Of a stretch of DNA of 6,503 nt, positions 1 to 6,503 are shown in pieces (position 1 is the first letter of the stretch; every line of letters starts with the position of its first letter). This DNA is from a virus. The stretch spans positions 1-6,503 of the IMG/VR virus record IMGVR_UViG_3300045988_043366. The stretch is one strand, 5' to 3'. The notes under the pieces were generated by a model that made no database searches, was not told the origin of the DNA, and worked only from the letters and a program-made list of their open reading frames with translations. The translations under genes were made by a program, and so were the position numbers.

Positions 1-55
1 TATTGAGCCATATGAGAATCAGAAGCAGGAACATTAACACCGAAATGAGCCTTAA
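1..55. repeat. Terminal redundancy, left copy. It is identical to 6449-6503, so the contig is a closed circle of 6448 nt.
   Basis: Read directly: tattgagccatatgagaatcagaagcaggaacattaacaccgaaatgagccttaa occurs at 1-55 and again at 6449-6503 (55/55 identical). The capsid reading frame is continuous across the junction. Confidence 0.97.
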
Positions 56-1232
56 TCTGGTCACGATAATTGGTATCAACAGATTGAGTAATTTCACGAT
101 ATTTCTGCAAAGCTTCTGCTTGACGAAGAGCAAGAATATTAAATGAAGCAGATAACGAAGCATTACCAGCAATCAAGTTAGTACCAACAGGAATAGAAGA
201 AGAAGGAGTGGAAGAAGGCTTCACTAAAAAAGAAGAATTCGTTTTAATCTCCGTAAAATTTTGAACAGTTAAACCAGAAGAACCAATACGAACATCAGAA
301 TAACCAGTATTACCAGGAACATCTACAACAGCAATATCACCAAACTGGGAATTAGGAAGAATTCCCATAAACATATCCTTATTCCAATTGCAATAGCGAA
401 GAGAAAACAAATTGTCTCGTTTCCAATAATCGGAGTTAGCAGGAAGAGAAGTATCAATAGTACCACCAAATAAATTTCCAGAACCTTGATACCAGTCAAA
501 GTTATAAGAAGTAGGATCAGCATTTTCCCATTGAGACCAACGGAAGAAATCTTGGTAGATCTTCTGATAAGCAGCAAGAGGAAAAACATTAACATTCATG
601 TTAAAATTATACATCTGGCTGTAAACAATACCAGAATCGGAAGCAAGAGGGACTTGTCGATTCCACCAACGATAGTTAGAATTACCGATACCTAAAGAAG
701 GAATATTATTAGGAATAATATTCCCATAATTCAACATGTGAAGAAGCTTATAATTTACATCTCCACGAACATAACCAAAAATATTAGCATAAGCATTATT
801 TGCTTGCCAAGATTTCAAAGCGGGAACAGACAGAGAGCCAGAAGCAAAGAAACAAGAGAAACCTAAATCCGAAAGAGAACAGTAAGGCAAATCTCCGGAA
901 ACAGTCAACGCAGTTAAAATATCCTTAGATTGAACAGGAGCTACTTCACCCATCTGAATAACAGAGGCGTCAAAAGATTTCCAAATCAAATCAAGAGGAA
1001 CAGCATAAAAATCAAAATACTCACGAATACGAGTATAAGCAGCAGTCTGAACGGGACGAGTACGTGTGAAATACTGAATGTCAATATCATACGTACAACC
1101 AGGGATACCTAAATCCCAAAATACAGGAAGAAGCTCACCACATTTCGCAGAAAAAACATTTTTAGAACCAATATCAAAACCAGAACGATGAGGATGGTTC
1201 TGGAGCTGTTTAAGACCAGTAAAATGAGCCAT
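1..1232 (-). CDS. VP1: Major capsid protein VP1 (Microviridae F/VP1 family), N-terminal about 410 codons. The ORF runs off the left edge and continues at 6448 on the circular genome. It is missing from the ORF track because it has no stop codon inside the window.
   Basis: Hand translation from ATG at 1232-1230 gives MAHFTGLKQLQNHPHRSGFDIGSKNVFSAKCGELLPVFWDLGIPGCTYDIDIQYFTRTRPVQTAAYTRIREYFDFYAVPLDLIWK...NILALRQAEALQKYREITQSVDTNYRDQIKAHFGVNVPASDSHMAQY with no stop down to position 1. The N-terminus (HFTGL..RSGFD...GELLPVFW) and the ALRxAxALQKY...Y..QI.AHFGV block are typical of microvirus VP1. The frame (top codon positions equal 2 mod 3) matches ORF 5806..6459 after the 6448-nt wrap. Confidence 0.93.
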   Translation of the reverse strand, partial: MAHFTGLKQLQNHPHRSGFDIGSKNVFSAKCGELLPVFWDLGIPGCTYDIDIQYFTRTRPVQTAAYTRIREYFDFYAVPLDLIWKSFDASVIQMGEVAPVQSKDILTALTVSGDLPYCSLSDLGFSCFFASGSLSVPALKSWQANNAYANIFGYVRGDVNYKLLHMLNYGNIIPNNIPSLGIGNSNYRWWNRQVPLASDSGIVYSQMYNFNMNVNVFPLAAYQKIYQDFFRWSQWENADPTSYNFDWYQGSGNLFGGTIDTSLPANSDYWKRDNLFSLRYCNWNKDMFMGILPNSQFGDIAVVDVPGNTGYSDVRIGSSGLTVQNFTEIKTNSSFLVKPSSTPSSSIPVGTNLIAGNASLSASFNILALRQAEALQKYREITQSVDTNYRDQIKAHFGVNVPASDSHMAQ

Positions 1233-1234
1233 AA

Positions 1235-2905
1235 CTAAAAATTTAAATTAAACAATAAGCCAGATACATCATTGTAATTCTTATGTTTAACTTTCTGAAA
1301 AATCTTCTGTTTAACAGATTTTTTCAAAGAGGACAAGACAAAGTTTAACTCATTCCAAAAAGATTCATCATCTTTAGAAGGTAAACAATAACCAACAGTC
1401 CTAGACTTTAAAAAAGAATCTGATTCAGGATGAACAGAGAGATAATCATAAAAGTCATTGATGAATCTCAATTCTTTTCTAGACCAATAATCAAAAGAAG
1501 AAACAAATAATTTAAATAAGAACCTCTTCAAATCCTCGGGTAAAACATGCCTATCAAGACGCCAAAAACGCAAAGTACGATTAACAGAAGAAAAAAATCT
1601 ATAAATCTTACCTACAACAGAATCAAAATCAAGTTGAACGGTTTCAAGACGAATATAATCAAAAATAAGAAAATCATAACGAGAGGCAGTACAATAACCA
1701 GACTTTACATCATAATAAAAACGAGCATAACATTTAGCAAGCGAGAATGTAGAAAGATTTTCATCTATTGATATATATCCGTCACGTATGAGCCTGTTGG
1801 ATGCTGTGAACGCACCGAAAAATAAGTCAGTACAGCTGTATGGATCCGCAAAAACAGGGTCAGAGATTCGGGGAAATAATGTATGTTCATACGACCGTGA
1901 AGGCTTGACTGTGACATACTCACCATTAATCGGGACACTGAATCCATCAAAACACGAAGCGGCAACTTCTTGTATCTCTGAAATGTCGGACGATTGACGA
2001 AAGAGACTATTAACCGAAAGTCCTTTGGAATGGTAGGATCTAGGTCTAATTTCTTTGTGTCGGTTAAAAAAGTCTGGTAAATCGACAAAACTATTAATAT
2101 ATGACGCAACATAGCCAGCTGCGGAACCTCTCGATAATGAACAATCCGTACGACCGTAGCTCCAGCTCTTAGATACCAACTCACATATAGACGAGGTGAG
2201 TGCGTCCGAGTTAAAGAATAATATACCATGCCAATGCGGACGATACGTCCGTCCACCATACTCTGATACAAGGTAGTAACATATTTTTTCATCGTATTTC
2301 TCTGCAATCAATTTACGTAAACGTTTAAAAAACAAATTCTGGTCATAAGGGTTTAAAACCAAAACCTCATTACGACATTCATCAATAGAAGGGGAAACAA
2401 CACATTTGCGTGCAAAATCATAACGACTGTTAGAAGCTACCAACAAATCACGAACTTCCTTACCGGAAAAGGTATGAAGAAACTGATAAGATTCCTCTGT
2501 TTCTGAAAAATCGCGAACACGACCGGAGTCGTGAACGCGAAAACAGCCAGAACGGGGTAAATAAGTAGCTGCTATTTGATACCTAGAATCATCGTAGGGC
2601 AAATGCCTAGGGTCAGAATCGGACATATAAGCATCAATCTCACTTTCAGCATCACACCTTTCTACAACTTCAAGAGACACACGAGGGACAAACTCGTCAG
2701 AATAAGTAAGCGTAAAAAAGTAGGCATACTTAAAATGAGATGACATATTAGATATTAAAGCACATTGGATATTAGAACGATGAACAAGACATGACGGACA
2801 TGTACCACAACGAACAAACAGAGTTTCATGAGTGTATTTATTAGTCACCTTCCGAGGGTGAAAACACTCTGTAGCTAAATATTTTTCCCGTTCTTTTTCT
2901 GTCAT
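1235..2905 (-). CDS. VP4: Replication initiation protein VP4 (HUH rolling-circle endonuclease, phiX174 gpA-like), 556 aa
   Basis: Motif I is FFTLTY (aa 63-68, nt 2702-2719). Motif II is the HUH element RPHWHGILF (HWHGILF at nt 2216-2236). Motif III is GYVASYI with two Tyr (nt 2096-2113). All three were verified by hand translation. There is an N-terminal Cys cluster, RCGTCPSC. The TAG stop at 1235-1237 lies 2 nt before the VP1 ATG. Confidence 0.92.
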   Translation of the reverse strand: MTEKEREKYLATECFHPRKVTNKYTHETLFVRCGTCPSCLVHRSNIQCALISNMSSHFKYAYFFTLTYSDEFVPRVSLEVVERCDAESEIDAYMSDSDPRHLPYDDSRYQIAATYLPRSGCFRVHDSGRVRDFSETEESYQFLHTFSGKEVRDLLVASNSRYDFARKCVVSPSIDECRNEVLVLNPYDQNLFFKRLRKLIAEKYDEKICYYLVSEYGGRTYRPHWHGILFFNSDALTSSICELVSKSWSYGRTDCSLSRGSAAGYVASYINSFVDLPDFFNRHKEIRPRSYHSKGLSVNSLFRQSSDISEIQEVAASCFDGFSVPINGEYVTVKPSRSYEHTLFPRISDPVFADPYSCTDLFFGAFTASNRLIRDGYISIDENLSTFSLAKCYARFYYDVKSGYCTASRYDFLIFDYIRLETVQLDFDSVVGKIYRFFSSVNRTLRFWRLDRHVLPEDLKRFLFKLFVSSFDYWSRKELRFINDFYDYLSVHPESDSFLKSRTVGYCLPSKDDESFWNELNFVLSSLKKSVKQKIFQKVKHKNYNDVSGLLFNLNF

Positions 2906-2907
2906 AA

Positions 2908-3066
2908 TTACAATACTTTAATAGTCTTAGCAGAAGAAACCAACACCGGAGAACCTTCAGACTCTTTCAAAGCCTGGTTAACAGTAATCATAAGAGATTC
3001 TTCACTAGCAACATACACAACAGGTGCAGAGCCTTGTTTCTGATAAGAAATCAAATACATTTCCAT
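2908..3066 (-). CDS. Hypothetical small protein, 52 aa (MEMYLISYQKQGSAPVVYVASEESLMITVNQALKESEGSPVLVSSAKTIKVL). It falls below the ORF-track length cutoff.
   Basis: Hand translation: ATG at 3066-3064 (alternative ATG at 3060) and TAA at 2908-2910, 2 nt before the VP4 ATG. It fills an otherwise unexplained gap with the same tight spacing as the other genes. I recognise no similarity. Confidence 0.3.
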   Translation of the reverse strand: MEMYLISYQKQGSAPVVYVASEESLMITVNQALKESEGSPVLVSSAKTIKVL

Positions 3067-3077
3067 AATTTAAAAAT

Positions 3078-3275
3078 TTAACGATTAATATTAATTTTAG
3101 TACTATCAACACTAGACGTAGAAGTTTGTTCAGTTTTCTGCGTCGAGTTTTGATTGTTCTTTGAAATAGACATAGAAATAGTACAAGACTGTACAAACAA
3201 AGTAGTAATAACACCAACTATAAAAGTTGAAATTAACTTTACAATTTCAATCCATTGTTGAGGAGTAACCTTCAT
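3078..3275 (-). CDS. Small membrane or lipoprotein-like protein, 65 aa from the MKV start (the track ORF extends to 3308)
   Basis: Sequence is MKVTPQQWIEIVKLISTFIVGVITTLFVQSCTISMSISKNNQNSTQKTEQTSTSSVDSTKININR. It has a charged N-terminus, a hydrophobic segment of about 16 residues, a Cys after VQS (weak lipobox-like) and a polar S/T/N/Q-rich tail. The ATG at 3273-3275 was verified. The function is an inference. Confidence 0.45.
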   Translation of the reverse strand: MKVTPQQWIEIVKLISTFIVGVITTLFVQSCTISMSISKNNQNSTQKTEQTSTSSVDSTKININR

Positions 3276-3394
3276 AATAAAACAGATTTTAATTAAATAA
3301 CACTGCAATGATAGAAATAAAAATCATAATAAGCGAATAAAATAGTATTTTTTTTTAGAGTCTGTGTAATTTTTCAAAAGAAAGACAAGGGATG

Positions 3395-3510
3395 AGAGCT
3401 TTGAATAAGGTAAATCCAAAGCCCTTCGGGAAAAATTAGATAGGCTTCGCCAATAAAATGAACTAGGGGGCAACGATGCCGAACCGTTCCGCCCTTTCGG
3501 GCGCAGGTAT
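3395..3510 (-). other. Second structured non-coding block of about 48% GC, made of several short GC-clamped hairpins
   Basis: Helices read from the sequence: 3398-3403/3417-3422 (gctttg/caaagc, 6 bp); 3422-3424/3428-3430 (ccc ttc ggg); 3443-3445/3449-3451 (ggc ttc gcc); 3472-3475/3485-3488 (aacg/cgtt); 3490-3494/3499-3503 (cgccc tttc gggcg, 5 bp, GAAA loop in minus sense). No credible ORF is present. Confidence 0.35.
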
Positions 3511-3565
3511 GTGCTATAATAATATAAAATAGTAAAAAGAATATACAAATAATAAATATAGCACA
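3510..3565. repeat. Inverted repeat (9 bp, tgtgctata / tatagcaca) enclosing a 38-nt very AT-rich loop. It forms the spacer between the two structured blocks.
   Basis: Positions 3510-3518 pair with 3557-3565. The segment 3511-3580 has 11 G+C in 70 nt (16%, hand counted). Confidence 0.5.
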
Positions 3566-3572
3566 ACACTTT

Positions 3573-3631
3573 AATAAAAACGAGGAGCACATCTCCTATG
3601 CAGCTACGCCTGCATAGGGCTGTGCTCCTCG
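3573..3631 (-). terminator. Rho-independent terminator candidate on the minus strand, at the 3' end of the GC-rich island
   Basis: The hairpin is composite: 3581-3590/3622-3631 (cgaggagcac/gtgctcctcg, 10 bp) plus 3595-3603/3610-3618 (cctatgcag/ctgcatagg, 9 bp) with a 6-nt loop. In minus sense it is followed immediately by TTTTTATTAA (reverse complement of 3571-3580). In plus sense it is followed by G8, so it is not a terminator on that strand. Confidence 0.6.
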
Positions 3632-3905
3632 TGGGGGGGGCTGCGCACTGACACGTCCAGCGGCTGGACAGTGTTTGCATCATACGGGATTGTATTTACC
3701 ACCTCAAACGCCGGGGGGCTTCGGTGTATAACGGGAGGGTGAGGTATGCCTTTATCCGAGAGGCGGCTACCTTAAAACCAGGATAAGGAGTGACGTGCAC
3801 CCGGCCGGAGGCCGTGGTGTGCGGCTTCGCCGATACTAAGGTGCTAGACGCTAAGGAGGGCTATGCGCCCTCTATTGCTCCATCAGCGTTCAAACGCCAC
3901 GCAGG
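3581..3905 (-). ncRNA. Unclassified GC-rich, hairpin-dense non-coding island. It may be a structured RNA or an ssDNA structural element. The strand is assigned tentatively.
   Basis: G+C is 189/320 (59%, hand counted over 3581-3900), while flanking coding DNA is much more AT-rich by eye. Helices: the terminator hairpin above; 3655-3660/3664-3669 (gtccag/ctggac) extended by 3652-3654/3671-3673; 3743-3746/3768-3771 plus 3748-3750/3765-3767 enclosing c(gaga)g at 3757-3762; 3802-3806/3810-3814 (cggcc/ggccg) extended by 3795-3800/3817-3822; 3822-3825/3829-3832 (cggc ttc gccg); 3856-3860/3868-3872 (gaggg/ccctc); 3886-3889/3894-3897. There is a G8 run at 3633-3640. The only ORFs here translate to implausible protein. 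Confidence 0.4.
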
Positions 3906-3923
3906 CTTAAAGATACTAATCGA

Positions 3924-4136
3924 CTATAGAAACTTGTAGCTACCAACAGGGTTTTCAGAGTTAAGCATATCATGCAGAGACAAATAGCGATAGACGGTAA
4001 AATCACAATCCTGATAATAAGGAAGATTTTTTCGAGCCCACCTCTTAAAATAAGCCTTGGCATTAGAACGAGAACCAATATAAGTATTAACAACAAACGA
4101 ACCATAATATAATGTGAAATAAAATTTCTCTTTCAT
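3924..4136 (-). CDS. 70-aa protein whose N-terminus resembles the first half of a GIY-YIG (URI) nuclease domain. It may be a minimal or truncated homing-endonuclease-like gene.
   Basis: Sequence is MKEKFYFTLYYGSFVVNTYIGSRSNAKAYFKRWARKNLPYYQDCDFTVYRYLSLHDMLNSENPVGSYKFL. FYF is followed by 11 residues and then YIGS.SN (YIG at nt 4074-4082), then KRW (nt 4038-4046) and ..N. This matches the spacing and order of the GIY-X10-11-YIG ... R ... (H)N pattern, compare I-TevI GIYQIKNTLNNKVYVGSAKDFEKRWKRH. The His is replaced by Lys and the protein is too short for a full domain. I prefer the start at 4136 over 4163 because 4163 lies inside the promoter-like motif. Confidence 0.5.
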   Translation of the reverse strand: MKEKFYFTLYYGSFVVNTYIGSRSNAKAYFKRWARKNLPYYQDCDFTVYRYLSLHDMLNSENPVGSYKFL

Positions 4137-4160
4137 AATAATAACTGTTTGAATAGTTAA

Positions 4161-4168
4161 CAAATATA
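4161..4168 (-). promoter_or_regulatory. Bacteroides-type -7 promoter element TAnnTTTG (TATATTTG in minus sense)
   Basis: The reverse complement of caaatata (4161-4168) is TATATTTG, an exact match to the Bacteroidota sigma-A -7 consensus TAnnTTTG. It lies about 25 nt upstream of the ATG at 4136 and just downstream of the VP2 terminator. The only upstream TTTG is 13 nt away, so the -33 spacing is poor. It was the only exact TAnnTTTG I found on the minus strand in my scan of the intergenic and start-proximal regions. Confidence 0.35.
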
Positions 4169-4182
4169 AAAAGCTTCAGGAC

Positions 4183-4210
4183 AAAAAAACTCCCCCGGTC
4201 GACGGGGGAG
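4183..4210 (-). terminator. Strong rho-independent terminator directly after VP2
   Basis: An 8-bp G/C-rich stem, 4190-4197 (ctcccccg) paired with 4203-4210 (cgggggag), has a 5-nt loop. In minus sense it is followed by seven T (reverse complement of A7 at 4183-4189). It starts 5 nt after the VP2 TAA stop (4216-4218). Confidence 0.75.
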
Positions 4211-4215
4211 CACCA

Positions 4216-5295
4216 TTAACGACGAATAGCACCTATAGCGTTTCCAATAACACCAATAGTATTAAGTCCTTCTTCATAATACCGTTTATTATAATTCCAA
4301 CGGTCAATAAGAGATTTAAAGGACTTAGATTCAGCATCACGCACTCCGGCTTCCTGGGCTTTCTGTATAAAACCCATATTGTAAGACGTTTGCGATTCAT
4401 ATCCGGTACTCATAGCTGCAATAAAATCATCAGCAAGAGCAAGAGCTTTTTTATAATCAAGATTATTCTTATCAGACATAGAATCATACCAAGTACCTTG
4501 CTTAGCATATAAAAGCTGCTTAGCAATAGATTCTTTACATTGTTGATATTTCAAATGTCCTGACGCCATCAGATCATAATACTGGGAAGCCATTACATTC
4601 AAACGCAGTTGCTCGGATTGGTCAAGATATTTATTCAAAATACGCTTAGATTGATTAGATAATAATAAATCGACACGCTGTGCACGCTGTATTTTATTAG
4701 TCCAGCGCAAATTTTGAAGATTCTGCTCGTTAGTATCATAATCAAGTTGCGCACGCTGTAAACCAGTCTCACGCATCCATTTCTTATACTCTGGGGAAAG
4801 CTTTCCCCAGTCAATATTAGAAAAAACCTGCATAGCTTGAGCTCGTGCTACATCCGCTTCTCCTTGCAAAACCTTAGTATGAGCATTAGATTCTCGTTCC
4901 TGATAGAGCATTTGTCCGGCTCGTCCAAGCTGTGAGCCAAGCTCTGAATAAACTTCAGGATTCACGGAAAGAGGAGGAGCAGCACTAGCTTGAGAAGTAC
5001 TACCAGTAGAACCTGCAACACCAGTATTCGAATCATATCCCAAATAAGGATTATACCCGGCTTCAGCACGTAATCTACGCTGATTGGCCGGAGAATTGTA
5101 CTCATTCTGTTTATTCCACATCTCAAGCTGAAAATCACGAGCTTTCTGGGCTTCACGAGCATTAAACTCGTTATTCATTTGATTCTGTGAAATATTCTTA
5201 TTGTTGGAAGCGGCACCAAGAGCAGCGCCACCAATAGTACCAATAGCACCAATAAGAGCAGGAACGATGGCTATATCATAACCATTACTGGGCAT
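4216..5295 (-). CDS. VP2: Minor capsid / DNA pilot protein VP2 (phiX174 gpH analogue), 359 aa from the MPSNGYD start (the track ORF extends to 5361)
   Basis: Gly/Ala-rich hydrophobic N-terminus (IVPALIGAIGTIGGAALGAA). Conserved microvirus VP2-type block MWNKQNEYNSPANQRRLRAEAGYNPYL. Long Q/K/R-rich helical middle and a Gly-zipper-like C-terminus (GLNTIGVIGNAIGAIRR). The ATG at 5293-5295 overlaps the upstream ORF stop (5285-5287) by 11 nt. The extra 22 codons up to 5361 are Leu-rich and lie inside the upstream ORF. Confidence 0.85.
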   Translation of the reverse strand: MPSNGYDIAIVPALIGAIGTIGGAALGAASNNKNISQNQMNNEFNAREAQKARDFQLEMWNKQNEYNSPANQRRLRAEAGYNPYLGYDSNTGVAGSTGSTSQASAAPPLSVNPEVYSELGSQLGRAGQMLYQERESNAHTKVLQGEADVARAQAMQVFSNIDWGKLSPEYKKWMRETGLQRAQLDYDTNEQNLQNLRWTNKIQRAQRVDLLLSNQSKRILNKYLDQSEQLRLNVMASQYYDLMASGHLKYQQCKESIAKQLLYAKQGTWYDSMSDKNNLDYKKALALADDFIAAMSTGYESQTSYNMGFIQKAQEAGVRDAESKSFKSLIDRWNYNKRYYEEGLNTIGVIGNAIGAIRR

Positions 5296-5800
5296 CAGCT
5301 GATCCAGAGCTATCGACACCAGAATCAGCAGCAGAAGTTTCAGCAGCTTCATTTTCAGCAAGTTGTCTTAAAGCATCAGATTCCATATCCTCTGCCAGTT
5401 CATTAATAGATTCAACCCAAGCAAGAATTTCGCTAGGGTGCTGCAAATGACGAGATTTAACCATAGATAAAAGCTCATCATCTGAAGGATTCAACTTATC
5501 CAATTGTTCTTGCAAAGAAGAAGAACGAGGACGCTTAGAATCCAAAAACCGTTGAACGGTAGAAACACCAGTACGCTTGGCAAGATCAGCGGCATGAAGT
5601 AACATACTCACATCAGAGCGAAGACGATAAGAAACAGAATCGCCAAAAGTCTCCGTTTCAAAACGAAATTGCTCAATAGGGTCAACTTCAAGAGAAATCT
5701 CACCAACACGAGTAGAGGGGAAAGTAGAAACCTCACGAGTAGGGGTAAATTTACGAAAACCACATCCAAAACAAAGTTCTTTTTTCTCTTTCATAATCAT
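5285..5800 (-). CDS. Putative internal scaffolding protein (VP3-like), 171 aa
   Basis: It sits between VP1 and VP2 and starts 5 nt after the VP1 TAA stop. The C-terminus is acidic (EDMESDALRQLAENEAAETSAADSGVDSSGSADAQ). The block PSDDELLSMVKSRHLQHPSEI resembles the motif I associate with microvirus scaffold proteins. The assignment rests on position plus remembered motif, not on a search. Confidence 0.55.
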   Translation of the reverse strand: MIMKEKKELCFGCGFRKFTPTREVSTFPSTRVGEISLEVDPIEQFRFETETFGDSVSYRLRSDVSMLLHAADLAKRTGVSTVQRFLDSKRPRSSSLQEQLDKLNPSDDELLSMVKSRHLQHPSEILAWVESINELAEDMESDALRQLAENEAAETSAADSGVDSSGSADAQ

Positions 5801-5805
5801 ACAAA

Positions 5806-6503
5806 TTAATAAGGAACACCATCACGAGACAAAGGACGAACAACCTTACATCCAACATAAGAATTAACCAAAAATTGGTCAGTCTCCCAAGTAGAATCAG
5901 CCTTAACAGCAAAAATATTATCCAAAGTATTAGGATTAACCTTGAAGAAAGGCCAAGTAGCAAAAGAATTAGCAGGAGTAGTGGCAAACGTACTATACAG
6001 GAAAGAATCATCAACAGGGGCAACCCAATCCTGAAGAGTCGTAGTAAATGCACCATGAATACGGTCTATATTGGACTTCCAAGCATAATAACGAGGATTA
6101 TAACCTAGAATAGAATCAACCTTTATAGAACCATTAGTCTTATACAGATTAGAATTAAGTAACTGAACAAGAGGAACACCTTCCATACCAATATTATCAA
6201 ATTCAGGAATAGGAAGTTCATCTACAGAAGTCGCCAAAAGTTGAGGATGCTGGCCGGAAATATCATAATCAAGAACAGGCATACAATGGTAAATACACAT
6301 CAAAATACAATATTTAGAACCTGTAGTATAACGCATAGAACCAGTTCCAGTACCGACACCTTTACCATAAATGACAGCTTCTCCATCACCTTGCAAGTTG
6401 TTATTTACAACCTCGGAAATATCAAGATTACGAGCAATACCTCCGATATATTGAGCCATATGAGAATCAGAAGCAGGAACATTAACACCGAAATGAGCCT
6501 TAA
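5806..6503 (-). CDS. VP1: Major capsid protein VP1, C-terminal part (5806-6448 is unique sequence; 6449-6503 duplicates 1-55)
   Basis: The track ORF 5806..6459 (MAQYIGGIARNLDISEV...VRPLSRDGVPY) is in frame with, and overlaps, the end of the 1..1232 translation (...SDSHMAQY). The joined ORF is 1232 + 643 = 1875 nt, giving 624 aa, with TAA at 5806-5808. Confidence 0.93.
   Translation of the reverse strand, partial: KAHFGVNVPASDSHMAQYIGGIARNLDISEVVNNNLQGDGEAVIYGKGVGTGTGSMRYTTGSKYCILMCIYHCMPVLDYDISGQHPQLLATSVDELPIPEFDNIGMEGVPLVQLLNSNLYKTNGSIKVDSILGYNPRYYAWKSNIDRIHGAFTTTLQDWVAPVDDSFLYSTFATTPANSFATWPFFKVNPNTLDNIFAVKADSTWETDQFLVNSYVGCKVVRPLSRDGVPY
6449..6503. repeat. Terminal redundancy, right copy (identical to 1-55)
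   Basis: See the left copy. Confidence 0.97.

Follow-up and report, generated by a model that had tools for sequence, protein, structure and literature searches.

The 6,503-nt stretch analyzed here, positions 1 to 6,503 of IMG/VR virus record IMGVR_UViG_3300045988_043366 (the window), is the circular genome of a microvirus, 6,448 nt long once the 55 nt that overlap at the termini are counted a single time, and its main intergenic region holds a base-paired, non-coding element at 3638-3918 that is real and had not been annotated until now. The element is a regular feature of several lineages of vertebrate-gut microviruses, with >130 genomes carrying it. With a little less than even confidence, we read it as a modular, exchangeable single-strand origin (SSO) of replication that would be used on the viral single-stranded DNA (ssDNA). 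An initial annotation, made from the letters of the window, had singled out a GC-rich, hairpin-dense island in this region, had proposed a functional RNA or ssDNA fold, and had suggested covariation analysis and an Rfam search as checks. A functional folded single strand is supported by the covariation described below; the remark that the strand evidence conflicts was also accurate, and sequence alone does not settle the strand.

The evidence for a selected fold comes from the 3′ domain of the element, for which 81 distinct copies were aligned. Standard base pairs fill 97.2% of the alignment cells at paired positions, compared with 81.3% after shuffling, and the covariation score is 0.402, compared with 0.121 for shuffled alignments (0 of 500 reach the observed value) and 0.03-0.09 when the pairing partners are slid. 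Both partners have changed in 19 of the 32 pairs, among them two pseudoknot contacts, each of which occurs as three or four Watson-Crick pair types. A reading frame stays open across the 3′ domain in at most 2 of 83 copies, so no frame is conserved there, in agreement with the earlier description of the region as non-coding. Hence, given the covariation and the lack of a shared open frame, the 3′ domain is a selected single-strand fold and not a protein-coding gene.

In the window, where the element is of the type that we call A and its minus strand would be the one that folds, a variable 5′/middle domain (3638-3795) is followed by a conserved 3′ core (3796-3906). Helix A (3796-3801/3816-3821), previously read by hand at approximately 3795-3822, encloses an inner hairpin (3803-3806/3810-3813) and is backed by covariation, at alignment pairs 9-34 (CG/UA) and 10-33 (AU/UA/GC) in the helix itself and at pairs 15-27 and 16-26 in the inner hairpin, both of which occur as all four Watson-Crick types. 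On the plus strand, 3796/3821 is a near-invariant T.G (77 of 81 copies) and 3797/3820 an invariant G.T (81 of 81); the plus-strand G-U pairs that had been put forward as extending this helix are therefore no evidence for pairing. Hairpin B (CGGC-TTC-GCCG, 3822-3832, arms 3822-3825/3829-3832) reads GCGAAGC on the minus strand, a GAA mini-hairpin, and its alignment pair 39-46 is GC in 52 copies, AU in 16, CG in 11 and UA in 1. After it comes a core that is highly conserved and largely unpaired (3833-3855), ATACTAAGGTGCTAGACGCTAAG in the window and ATATCAAGGTGCTAGACGCTAAG in its majority form, the invariance of which is partly a matter of ascertainment since these strings served as search patterns. 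Within the core, a mini-helix of 2 bp (3843-3844/3850-3851) covaries, with GC replaced by AU in 6 copies and CG by UA in 1. In hairpin C (3856-3861/3867-3872), four of the seven alignment pairs, six of which are present in the window, have changed on both sides, and loop bases 3864-3865 pair with 3884-3885 to form a pseudoknot contact (alignment pair 81-104: UA 25, CG 20, GC 8, AU 3; pair 82-103: GC 49, CG 21, UA 10). The core ends in an H-type pseudoknot at 3886-3906, with stems S1 (3886-3889/3899-3902) and S2 (3896-3898/3904-3906), in which pair 105-121 is CG in 44 copies and GC in 35, pair 108-118 UA in 58 and CG in 21, and pair 116-124 CG in 68 and GC in 12. A helix closing the 5′ and 3′ ends of the element, predicted by RNAalifold, was rejected because the covariation of 3886/3902 contradicts it. 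For the middle domain (3740-3795), MAFFT alignments gave competing pairing alternatives.

What rises above chance in the element is conservation and covariation, not folding stability. The density of hairpins that had drawn attention to the island is thermodynamically unexceptional once a terminator-like hairpin at its left edge is excluded: for 3636-3920, minimum free energy z-scores are -1.6 (plus strand) and -1.1 (minus strand) with RNA parameters, and -0.8 and -1.3, respectively, with DNA parameters. A z-score of about -4 for 3575-3910 was traced to the terminator hairpin. These scores discriminate neither between the strands nor between the two chemistries.

The proposed Rfam check turned up nothing credible, in line with the failure of the initial annotation to match the island to known RNAs. 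Searches of Rfam 15 with cmscan, which cover group I introns, RNase P, signal recognition particle RNA, riboswitches, self-cleaving ribozymes, HEARO, ROOL and GOLLD, gave weak, unrelated matches far below the gathering scores, both for the whole window (E ≤ 1) and for the isolated element of two families (E ≤ 10). ARAGORN found 0 tRNA or tmRNA genes, and we found no description of this element in the published literature. A 119-aa open reading frame (ORF) at 3324-3683 on the minus strand has no Pfam match, and the homologous ORFs of close relatives are of uneven length (51-133 aa).

Homologues of the element are widespread, while the remainder of the window has nearly no relatives at the nucleotide level. 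BLAST against deposited phages placed the 3′ part of the island, at a distance, in 21 microvirus records of intestinal origin (human, rat and lemur). With queries of two further element types (D and F) added, approximately 30 deposited records carry the element, and it is annotated in none of them. Exact-pattern scans with conserved core strings returned 23, 45 and 71 IMG/VR contigs and 42 metagenome contigs, and an nhmmer profile of the 3′ domain (approximately 185 nt) returned 133 loci. Copies have this 3′ domain in common and differ in their 5′ domains, by which families A to F are defined; both A-type and C-type elements extend over capsid lineages that are deeply divergent. Each genome unit carries a single copy, which invariably occupies one and the same intergenic slot, and no copy lies at any other site. 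Dulem virus 218, which at first appeared to be element-free, has a divergent F-type copy in the same place. In some variants (the F-type copies L005, L077, L096, L102 and L148, and also L006 and L059) the region after GGTGCTA is swapped for a CTAGGGC-AAC-GCCCTAG hairpin, or the 3′ third alone is retained, indicating that the modules of the element are separable.

Contigs with genuine copies do not exceed the size of a microvirus, except for six assembly concatemers or chimeras. Pattern matches on larger viral contigs (L119, L133, L144) and on metagenome contigs (L040, L055, L071) were dismissed as chance, since they had no profile match. A prophage context was likewise rejected. L050 is a chimera of bacterial DNA with 62% GC (1-6300) and microvirus DNA with 35% GC (6300-10093), L036 is a mirrored, palindromic assembly, and L047, L048, L058 and L066 are concatemers or joins (concatemers in the case of L048, L058 and L066).

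These distributions also bear on how the island was first delimited and explained. Its composition was correctly reported (59.1% GC over the 320 nt of 3581-3900 and 15.9% in the spacer 3511-3579, in a genome with 38% GC), as was the length of 3276-3923, 648 nt, which is the sole large non-coding stretch of the genome. The boundaries were wrong: the island is two features, a terminator-like hairpin on the minus strand (3580-3632) and the conserved element (3638-3918), and a further conserved module lies outside it at 3366-3456. All of the hairpins read by hand exist, and they are conserved only in part. The suggestion of horizontal acquisition holds for exchange between unrelated microviruses: PV067927, the closest homologue from the genomes in which the element lies in the sense of the genes, matches the window at 86% identity over exactly 3638-3918 and has no other nucleotide similarity to it. 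As a recent foreign import from outside, the element is improbable; several lineages of gut microviruses have it as a regular, family-wide part of their main intergenic region. A chimeric assembly insert, also considered earlier, is refuted by the recurrence of the element at an unchanged genomic position in contigs that come from many studies independent of one another.

In relation to the genes, the element takes either orientation, being antisense to them in 44 genomes (the window and 43 others; hereafter anti genomes) and sense in 73. In both cases its place is the main intergenic region, immediately before a block of small ORFs in the viral sense direction, and in sense genomes it begins 0-130 nt from the stop codon of the replication protein gene (Rep). 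In relation to strand asymmetry, measured as skew at third codon positions, the orientation is constant, with 0 exceptions among 117 genomes. Anti genomes have a T-rich coding strand with G over C (AT3 -0.51, GC3 +0.21), and sense genomes are their mirror image (AT3 +0.47, GC3 -0.23), so that the polarity found on the minus strand of the window is always that of the T-rich strand. phiX174, with AT3 -0.50 and GC3 +0.09, resembles the anti genomes, and it packages its coding strand.

Signals within the element bear on the folding strand and its chemistry. Covariation is almost purely Watson-Crick, and one-sided changes from G-C to G-U make up 4 of approximately 2,480 cells. At variable positions, the plus strand would hold approximately 17 A.C cells versus 4 G.U cells (approximately 16 independent A.C events versus 3 G.U events), and wobble pairs on the minus strand occupy <1% of cells. 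The comparison of G.U with A.C was discarded as a test of strand because both the invariant tandem G.U and mutation bias confound it. Mini-hairpins of the form C-GNA/GNRA-G are found in the element mainly on the polarity of the window's minus strand, 91 versus 9 in anti genomes and 54 versus 5 in sense genomes. The minus strand of the non-coding region of the window has five of them.

The origin that we tentatively propose would be a cis-acting DNA element, active while the genome is single-stranded. After infection, and again after each round of rolling-circle replication, the viral circle has to be primed by host enzymes for synthesis of the complementary strand. On the minus strand, which is T-rich and coding in the window, 3638-3918 would fold into hairpins A, B and C and the 3′ pseudoknot, all with short helices, and would present the unpaired conserved core of approximately 23 nt beside a GAA mini-hairpin. 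This fold may be the start site for host primase, RNA polymerase or a primosome, as in an SSO or an ori-c, with the module at 3366-3456 and a GAAA hairpin at 3491-3506 as accessory hairpins of the origin region. The origin module would be a cassette swapped among unrelated microviruses, as the SSOs of plasmids are. For the sense lineage, the proposal requires that the non-coding strand be packaged or that the element work there in some other way.

Several observations are consistent with this proposal. The element is non-coding DNA of a replicon with an ssDNA stage and it shows selected intrastrand pairing, as an SSO does. An origin is expected in the main non-coding region of such a rolling-circle replicon, which is where the element is found, and intergenic hairpins are the accepted site of complementary-strand origins in microviruses (PMC9865509, section 3.8). 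Its distribution is that of a cassette, with 5′ domains swapped and, in the window, a D-type module beside an A-type element. SSOs are, moreover, orientation-specific relative to the displaced strand (PMC4595007), and the orientation of the element follows strand asymmetry and not the direction of the genes. The almost exclusively Watson-Crick covariation, the mini-hairpins on the minus polarity, the lack of a framing promoter or terminator and the want of a credible Rfam match likewise favor a DNA origin.

The closest known counterparts are the ori-c of phage G4 and the primosome assembly site of phiX174, which like the element are intergenic, have several hairpins on the viral strand with C-GAA(A)-G mini-hairpins, and are entry points for host priming, as the element is presumed to be. 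The G4 record annotates an origin in the intergenic region, where the viral strand reads GGACGGC-GAAA-GCCGCCGTCC, and the F-G intergenic region of phiX174 contains GCGAAGC on the viral strand. The mini-hairpin motif is all that they have in common with the element, which is longer, has short pseudoknotted helices and a conserved unpaired core, is common to deep lineages, and in one large lineage is inverted relative to the genes. Plasmids and integrative and conjugative elements offer a second comparison in their sso modules (pBAA1-type, ssoA/T/U/W; ICEBs1 sso1), structured non-coding modules of approximately 200-340 nt in rolling-circle replicons, for which fold matters more than sequence and which are orientation-specific and exchangeable between replicons (PMC4595007). 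The element appears to be alike in the other respects, and it may be orientation-specific as well; in contrast, 72,556 plasmids contain no match to it, and pseudoknot contacts are not described for sso. The minus strand also contains TAGCGT, the 6-mer of the ssoA CS-6 motif, which is too short to count. The intergenic region of M13/f1 is another large, hairpin-dense non-coding region, taking up approximately 8-10% of an ssDNA genome and combining replication signals as the element may; it belongs to an unrelated virus family and has no known similarity to the element.

A number of findings weigh against an origin. Significant sequence similarity to known origins (phiX174 ori, G4, plasmids) is absent, and the element folds no more stably than shuffled sequences. 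The rule linking orientation to skew spans only approximately four deep lineages by capsid clustering, so its chance probability is approximately 0.125 (1 in 8), and in 73 of the 117 genomes the element is inverted relative to the genes. To our knowledge, all studied microviruses package the coding strand; if the sense phages do so, the proposed strand would never be single-stranded in them. The cultured phage phiMH2K (L111) has the A-rich skew of the sense type, yet carries a G4-like GAAA hairpin on its coding strand, in an intergenic region, and skew is thus not a validated proxy for the packaged strand. A polarised spectrum of singleton substitutions gave no clear sign of a mirrored mutation bias, and the excess of A.C over G.U could be mutation bias instead of a signal of strand. 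Lastly, the conserved unpaired segments are purine-rich on the plus strand, as such segments are in many RNAs, and the helices are short (2-7 bp) and joined by two strongly covarying pseudoknot contacts, a combination typical of RNA tertiary folds and one for which, as regards the pseudoknots, we know of no precedent in DNA origins.

As a separate observation on phiMH2K, its VP3/ORF5 intergenic region (2960-3030) carries GGCGTC-GAAA-GACGC and GGGCAAACGTTGCCC hairpins on the coding strand. This is plausibly a complementary-strand origin, which the record leaves unannotated.

The last of the points against an origin also speak for the leading alternative, a gene for a new class of structured non-coding RNA (ncRNA). 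This RNA would be approximately 190-280 nt long, contain several pseudoknots and be transcribed from the replicative form separately from the viral mRNAs. We regard this alternative as possible though doubtful. In the window's lineage the RNA from the plus strand would be antisense to all genes, with a role in trans on host or phage, such as that of a decoy, a scaffold or a ribozyme. A compact fold of short helices with two strongly covarying pseudoknot contacts, a highly conserved and (on the plus strand) purine-rich unpaired core, and the tandem U.G/G.U of helix A, kept in 77 and 81 of 81 copies, would all suit such an RNA, as would the occurrence of the element in either orientation relative to the genes, which is expected of an autonomous transcription unit. 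Its absence from Rfam would make it new. Set against these are the near-absence of G.U at variable positions (4 cells versus approximately 17 A.C), which is unusual for RNA families, stability no higher than chance with RNA parameters, and an orientation that follows strand skew without exception, which is not predicted for an RNA gene. Furthermore, neither a promoter of Bacteroidota or sigma-70 type nor a terminator brackets the element as an RNA gene on either strand, and in sense genomes the Rep stop codon is 0-130 nt from the start of the element. A protein partner was sought among adjoining ORFs, and none is common to both orientations; "convergent ORFs" in sense genomes proved to be low-complexity artefacts. 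The class would have to be large, multiply pseudoknotted and specific to vertebrate-gut microviruses, and would run antisense to all of the genes in the window's lineage; to this combination we give limited credence. Large orphan structured RNAs of phages and bacteria (ROOL, GOLLD, raiA), as well as Rfam motifs for which an action as ssDNA is suspected (GEBRO, PAGEV, ARRPOF), are comparable in having been recognized by covariation in GC-rich intergenic DNA and in raising the question of RNA or ssDNA. The element differs from ROOL and GOLLD in being smaller and found only on microvirus-sized contigs, and no Rfam match to it is credible. If it is an RNA, the element would be one of the rare complex structured RNAs carried by an ssDNA phage of 6 kb, a kind of genome with almost no non-coding DNA to spare.

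The exchange of the element between lineages could also be that of a selfish or hitch-hiking mobile cassette, which would move via ssDNA intermediates (template switching during rolling-circle synthesis, or transposition of the HUH type), keep its polarity relative to the displaced strand, and have a structure that serves its own mobility and not the phage. We think this improbable. The same element type does occur in unrelated capsid lineages with dissimilar flanks, its modules are shuffled, with differing 5′ domains and with a D-type 5′ module beside a whole A-type element in the window, and its polarity is constant relative to strand asymmetry. A mobile cassette would, however, have to account for a single copy per genome unit in an unvarying intergenic slot, for the F-type copy in Dulem virus 218, the sole apparently element-free relative examined, and for the absence of copies from bacterial genomes (by exact-pattern scan) and plasmids.

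A viral-strand origin, with the conserved core as the nick site of Rep, is very unlikely. The minus strand reads CACCTTGATATC...ACACCAC followed by a GC hairpin, which resembles the CAACTTG/ATATT...GACCAC followed by CCCC-GAA-GGGG of phiX174 (an origin and following hairpin that we confirmed in NC_001422). In reverse complement (CACCTTGATATCGGCGAAGCCGCACACCAC), the core agrees with the phiX174 origin in layout and spacing, with 18 of 30 identities in two blocks, and the Reps of all these phages have PF23343. Against this, 18 of 30 is also the best match found in shuffled sequence (mode 18-19), approximately 1.5 further occurrences of CTTGATA per genome lie on that strand outside the element, the position of the putative nick is variable (CTTGATATC, CTTAGTATC in the window, CATAGTATC and CTTAGCATC), and a single element type occurs with Reps of two widely divergent lineages, of approximately 340 and 556 aa. 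The similarity to the phiX174 origin was accordingly set aside as not significant, the site being variable and the 7-mer not unique.

Host-derived sequence or an attP site was rejected on the basis of four matches to the core string in 185,579 species genomes, which have dissimilar flanks and are fewer than expected by chance, and of no match to the element in the plasmid collection; a group I intron, considered because of R/S-like motifs, was rejected as well, because no model matches, the element is intergenic and occurs in both orientations, and, in sense genomes, it comes after the stop codon of Rep, beyond which the ORF does not continue.

Gut microviruses are abundant and their deposited genomes are blank at this region, for which the element supplies a concrete, clonable candidate for a complementary-strand origin. 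It can also serve as an annotation marker and as a tracer of recombination between lineages. Moreover, an orientation that flips relative to the genes and is fixed relative to strand asymmetry raises a question about the assumption that every microvirus packages its coding strand. If the element marks the packaged strand, a large Alpavirinae-like lineage would package the antisense strand, and its members would be the first negative-sense microviruses.

The terminator-like hairpin beside the element (3580-3632) is a composite of 21 bp, arranged as 12 + 9 bp (3580-3591/3621-3632 and 3595-3603/3610-3618), and is followed on the minus strand by TTTTTATT. It has the GC-rich hairpin and the T-run of an intrinsic terminator on that strand, with the tail CGTTTTTATT. 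Compensatory changes and conservation of this hairpin are confined to the window's lineage (L009, L025, L027), and PV067927 does not have it. A second intrinsic-terminator-like hairpin on the minus strand (4189-4211; 9 pairs, 7 of them GC, then TTTTTTT) directly follows the pilot-protein gene. The two hairpins bracket a short unit made up of a small-protein gene, ORF79, and the element in antisense. The hairpin at 3580-3632 would terminate the ORF79 transcription unit after read-through of the element, and with both hairpins in place the minus strand of the element would be expected as a 3′ untranslated region in the viral transcripts of this lineage.

Approximately 180 nt upstream of the A-type element is the second structured module (3366-3456), which is conserved and homologous to the 5′ domain of D-type elements, with the same architecture as 2385-2455 of the D-type genome L004. 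It contains hairpins at 3395-3406/3414-3425, 3422-3431 (CCC-TTCG-GGG) and 3443-3451 (GGC-TTC-GCC), the loops of which read GAA on the minus strand, and it shows compensatory changes even in the divergent relative L027. Next come a GC hairpin (CGCCC-TTTC-GGGCG, 3491-3506) that has a GAAA loop on the minus strand, and an AT-rich spacer with an inverted repeat (3510-3523/3552-3565). The order in the window is thus D-type 5′ module, GC hairpin, AT-rich inverted repeat, terminator hairpin and complete A-type element, a layout that looks as though one cassette had replaced another, or been inserted next to it, with a remnant of the older one left behind.

Every credible gene of the window is on the minus strand. 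They comprise the capsid gene, with a Phage_F domain (1232 to 1, then over the junction to 5806), a scaffold-like ORF (5285-5800), a pilot-like ORF (the pilot-protein gene, 4216-5361), Rep (1235-2905, 556 aa), ORF79 (3924-4163) and two further small ORFs. In the Rep of the window, PF23343 is the sole Pfam match (residues 184-271); the Rep of the sense lineage has approximately 340 aa, which leaves that of the window with additional N-terminal and C-terminal regions. ORF79 (MKEKFYFTLYYGSF...) has no Pfam match, is conserved, and is confined to close relatives of the window, where it lies next to A-type elements; it is convergent with the plus sense of the element and terminates 6-18 nt from it. 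The Bacteroidota-type promoter consensus has no match anywhere in the window, a hint that the host group or the type of promoter may differ. Among the sense-lineage genomes, L001 has a perfect Bacteroidota-type promoter (TTTG-N20-TATATTTG, plus strand, 3821-3852) approximately 35 nt downstream of the element, directed away from it and toward the small ORFs.

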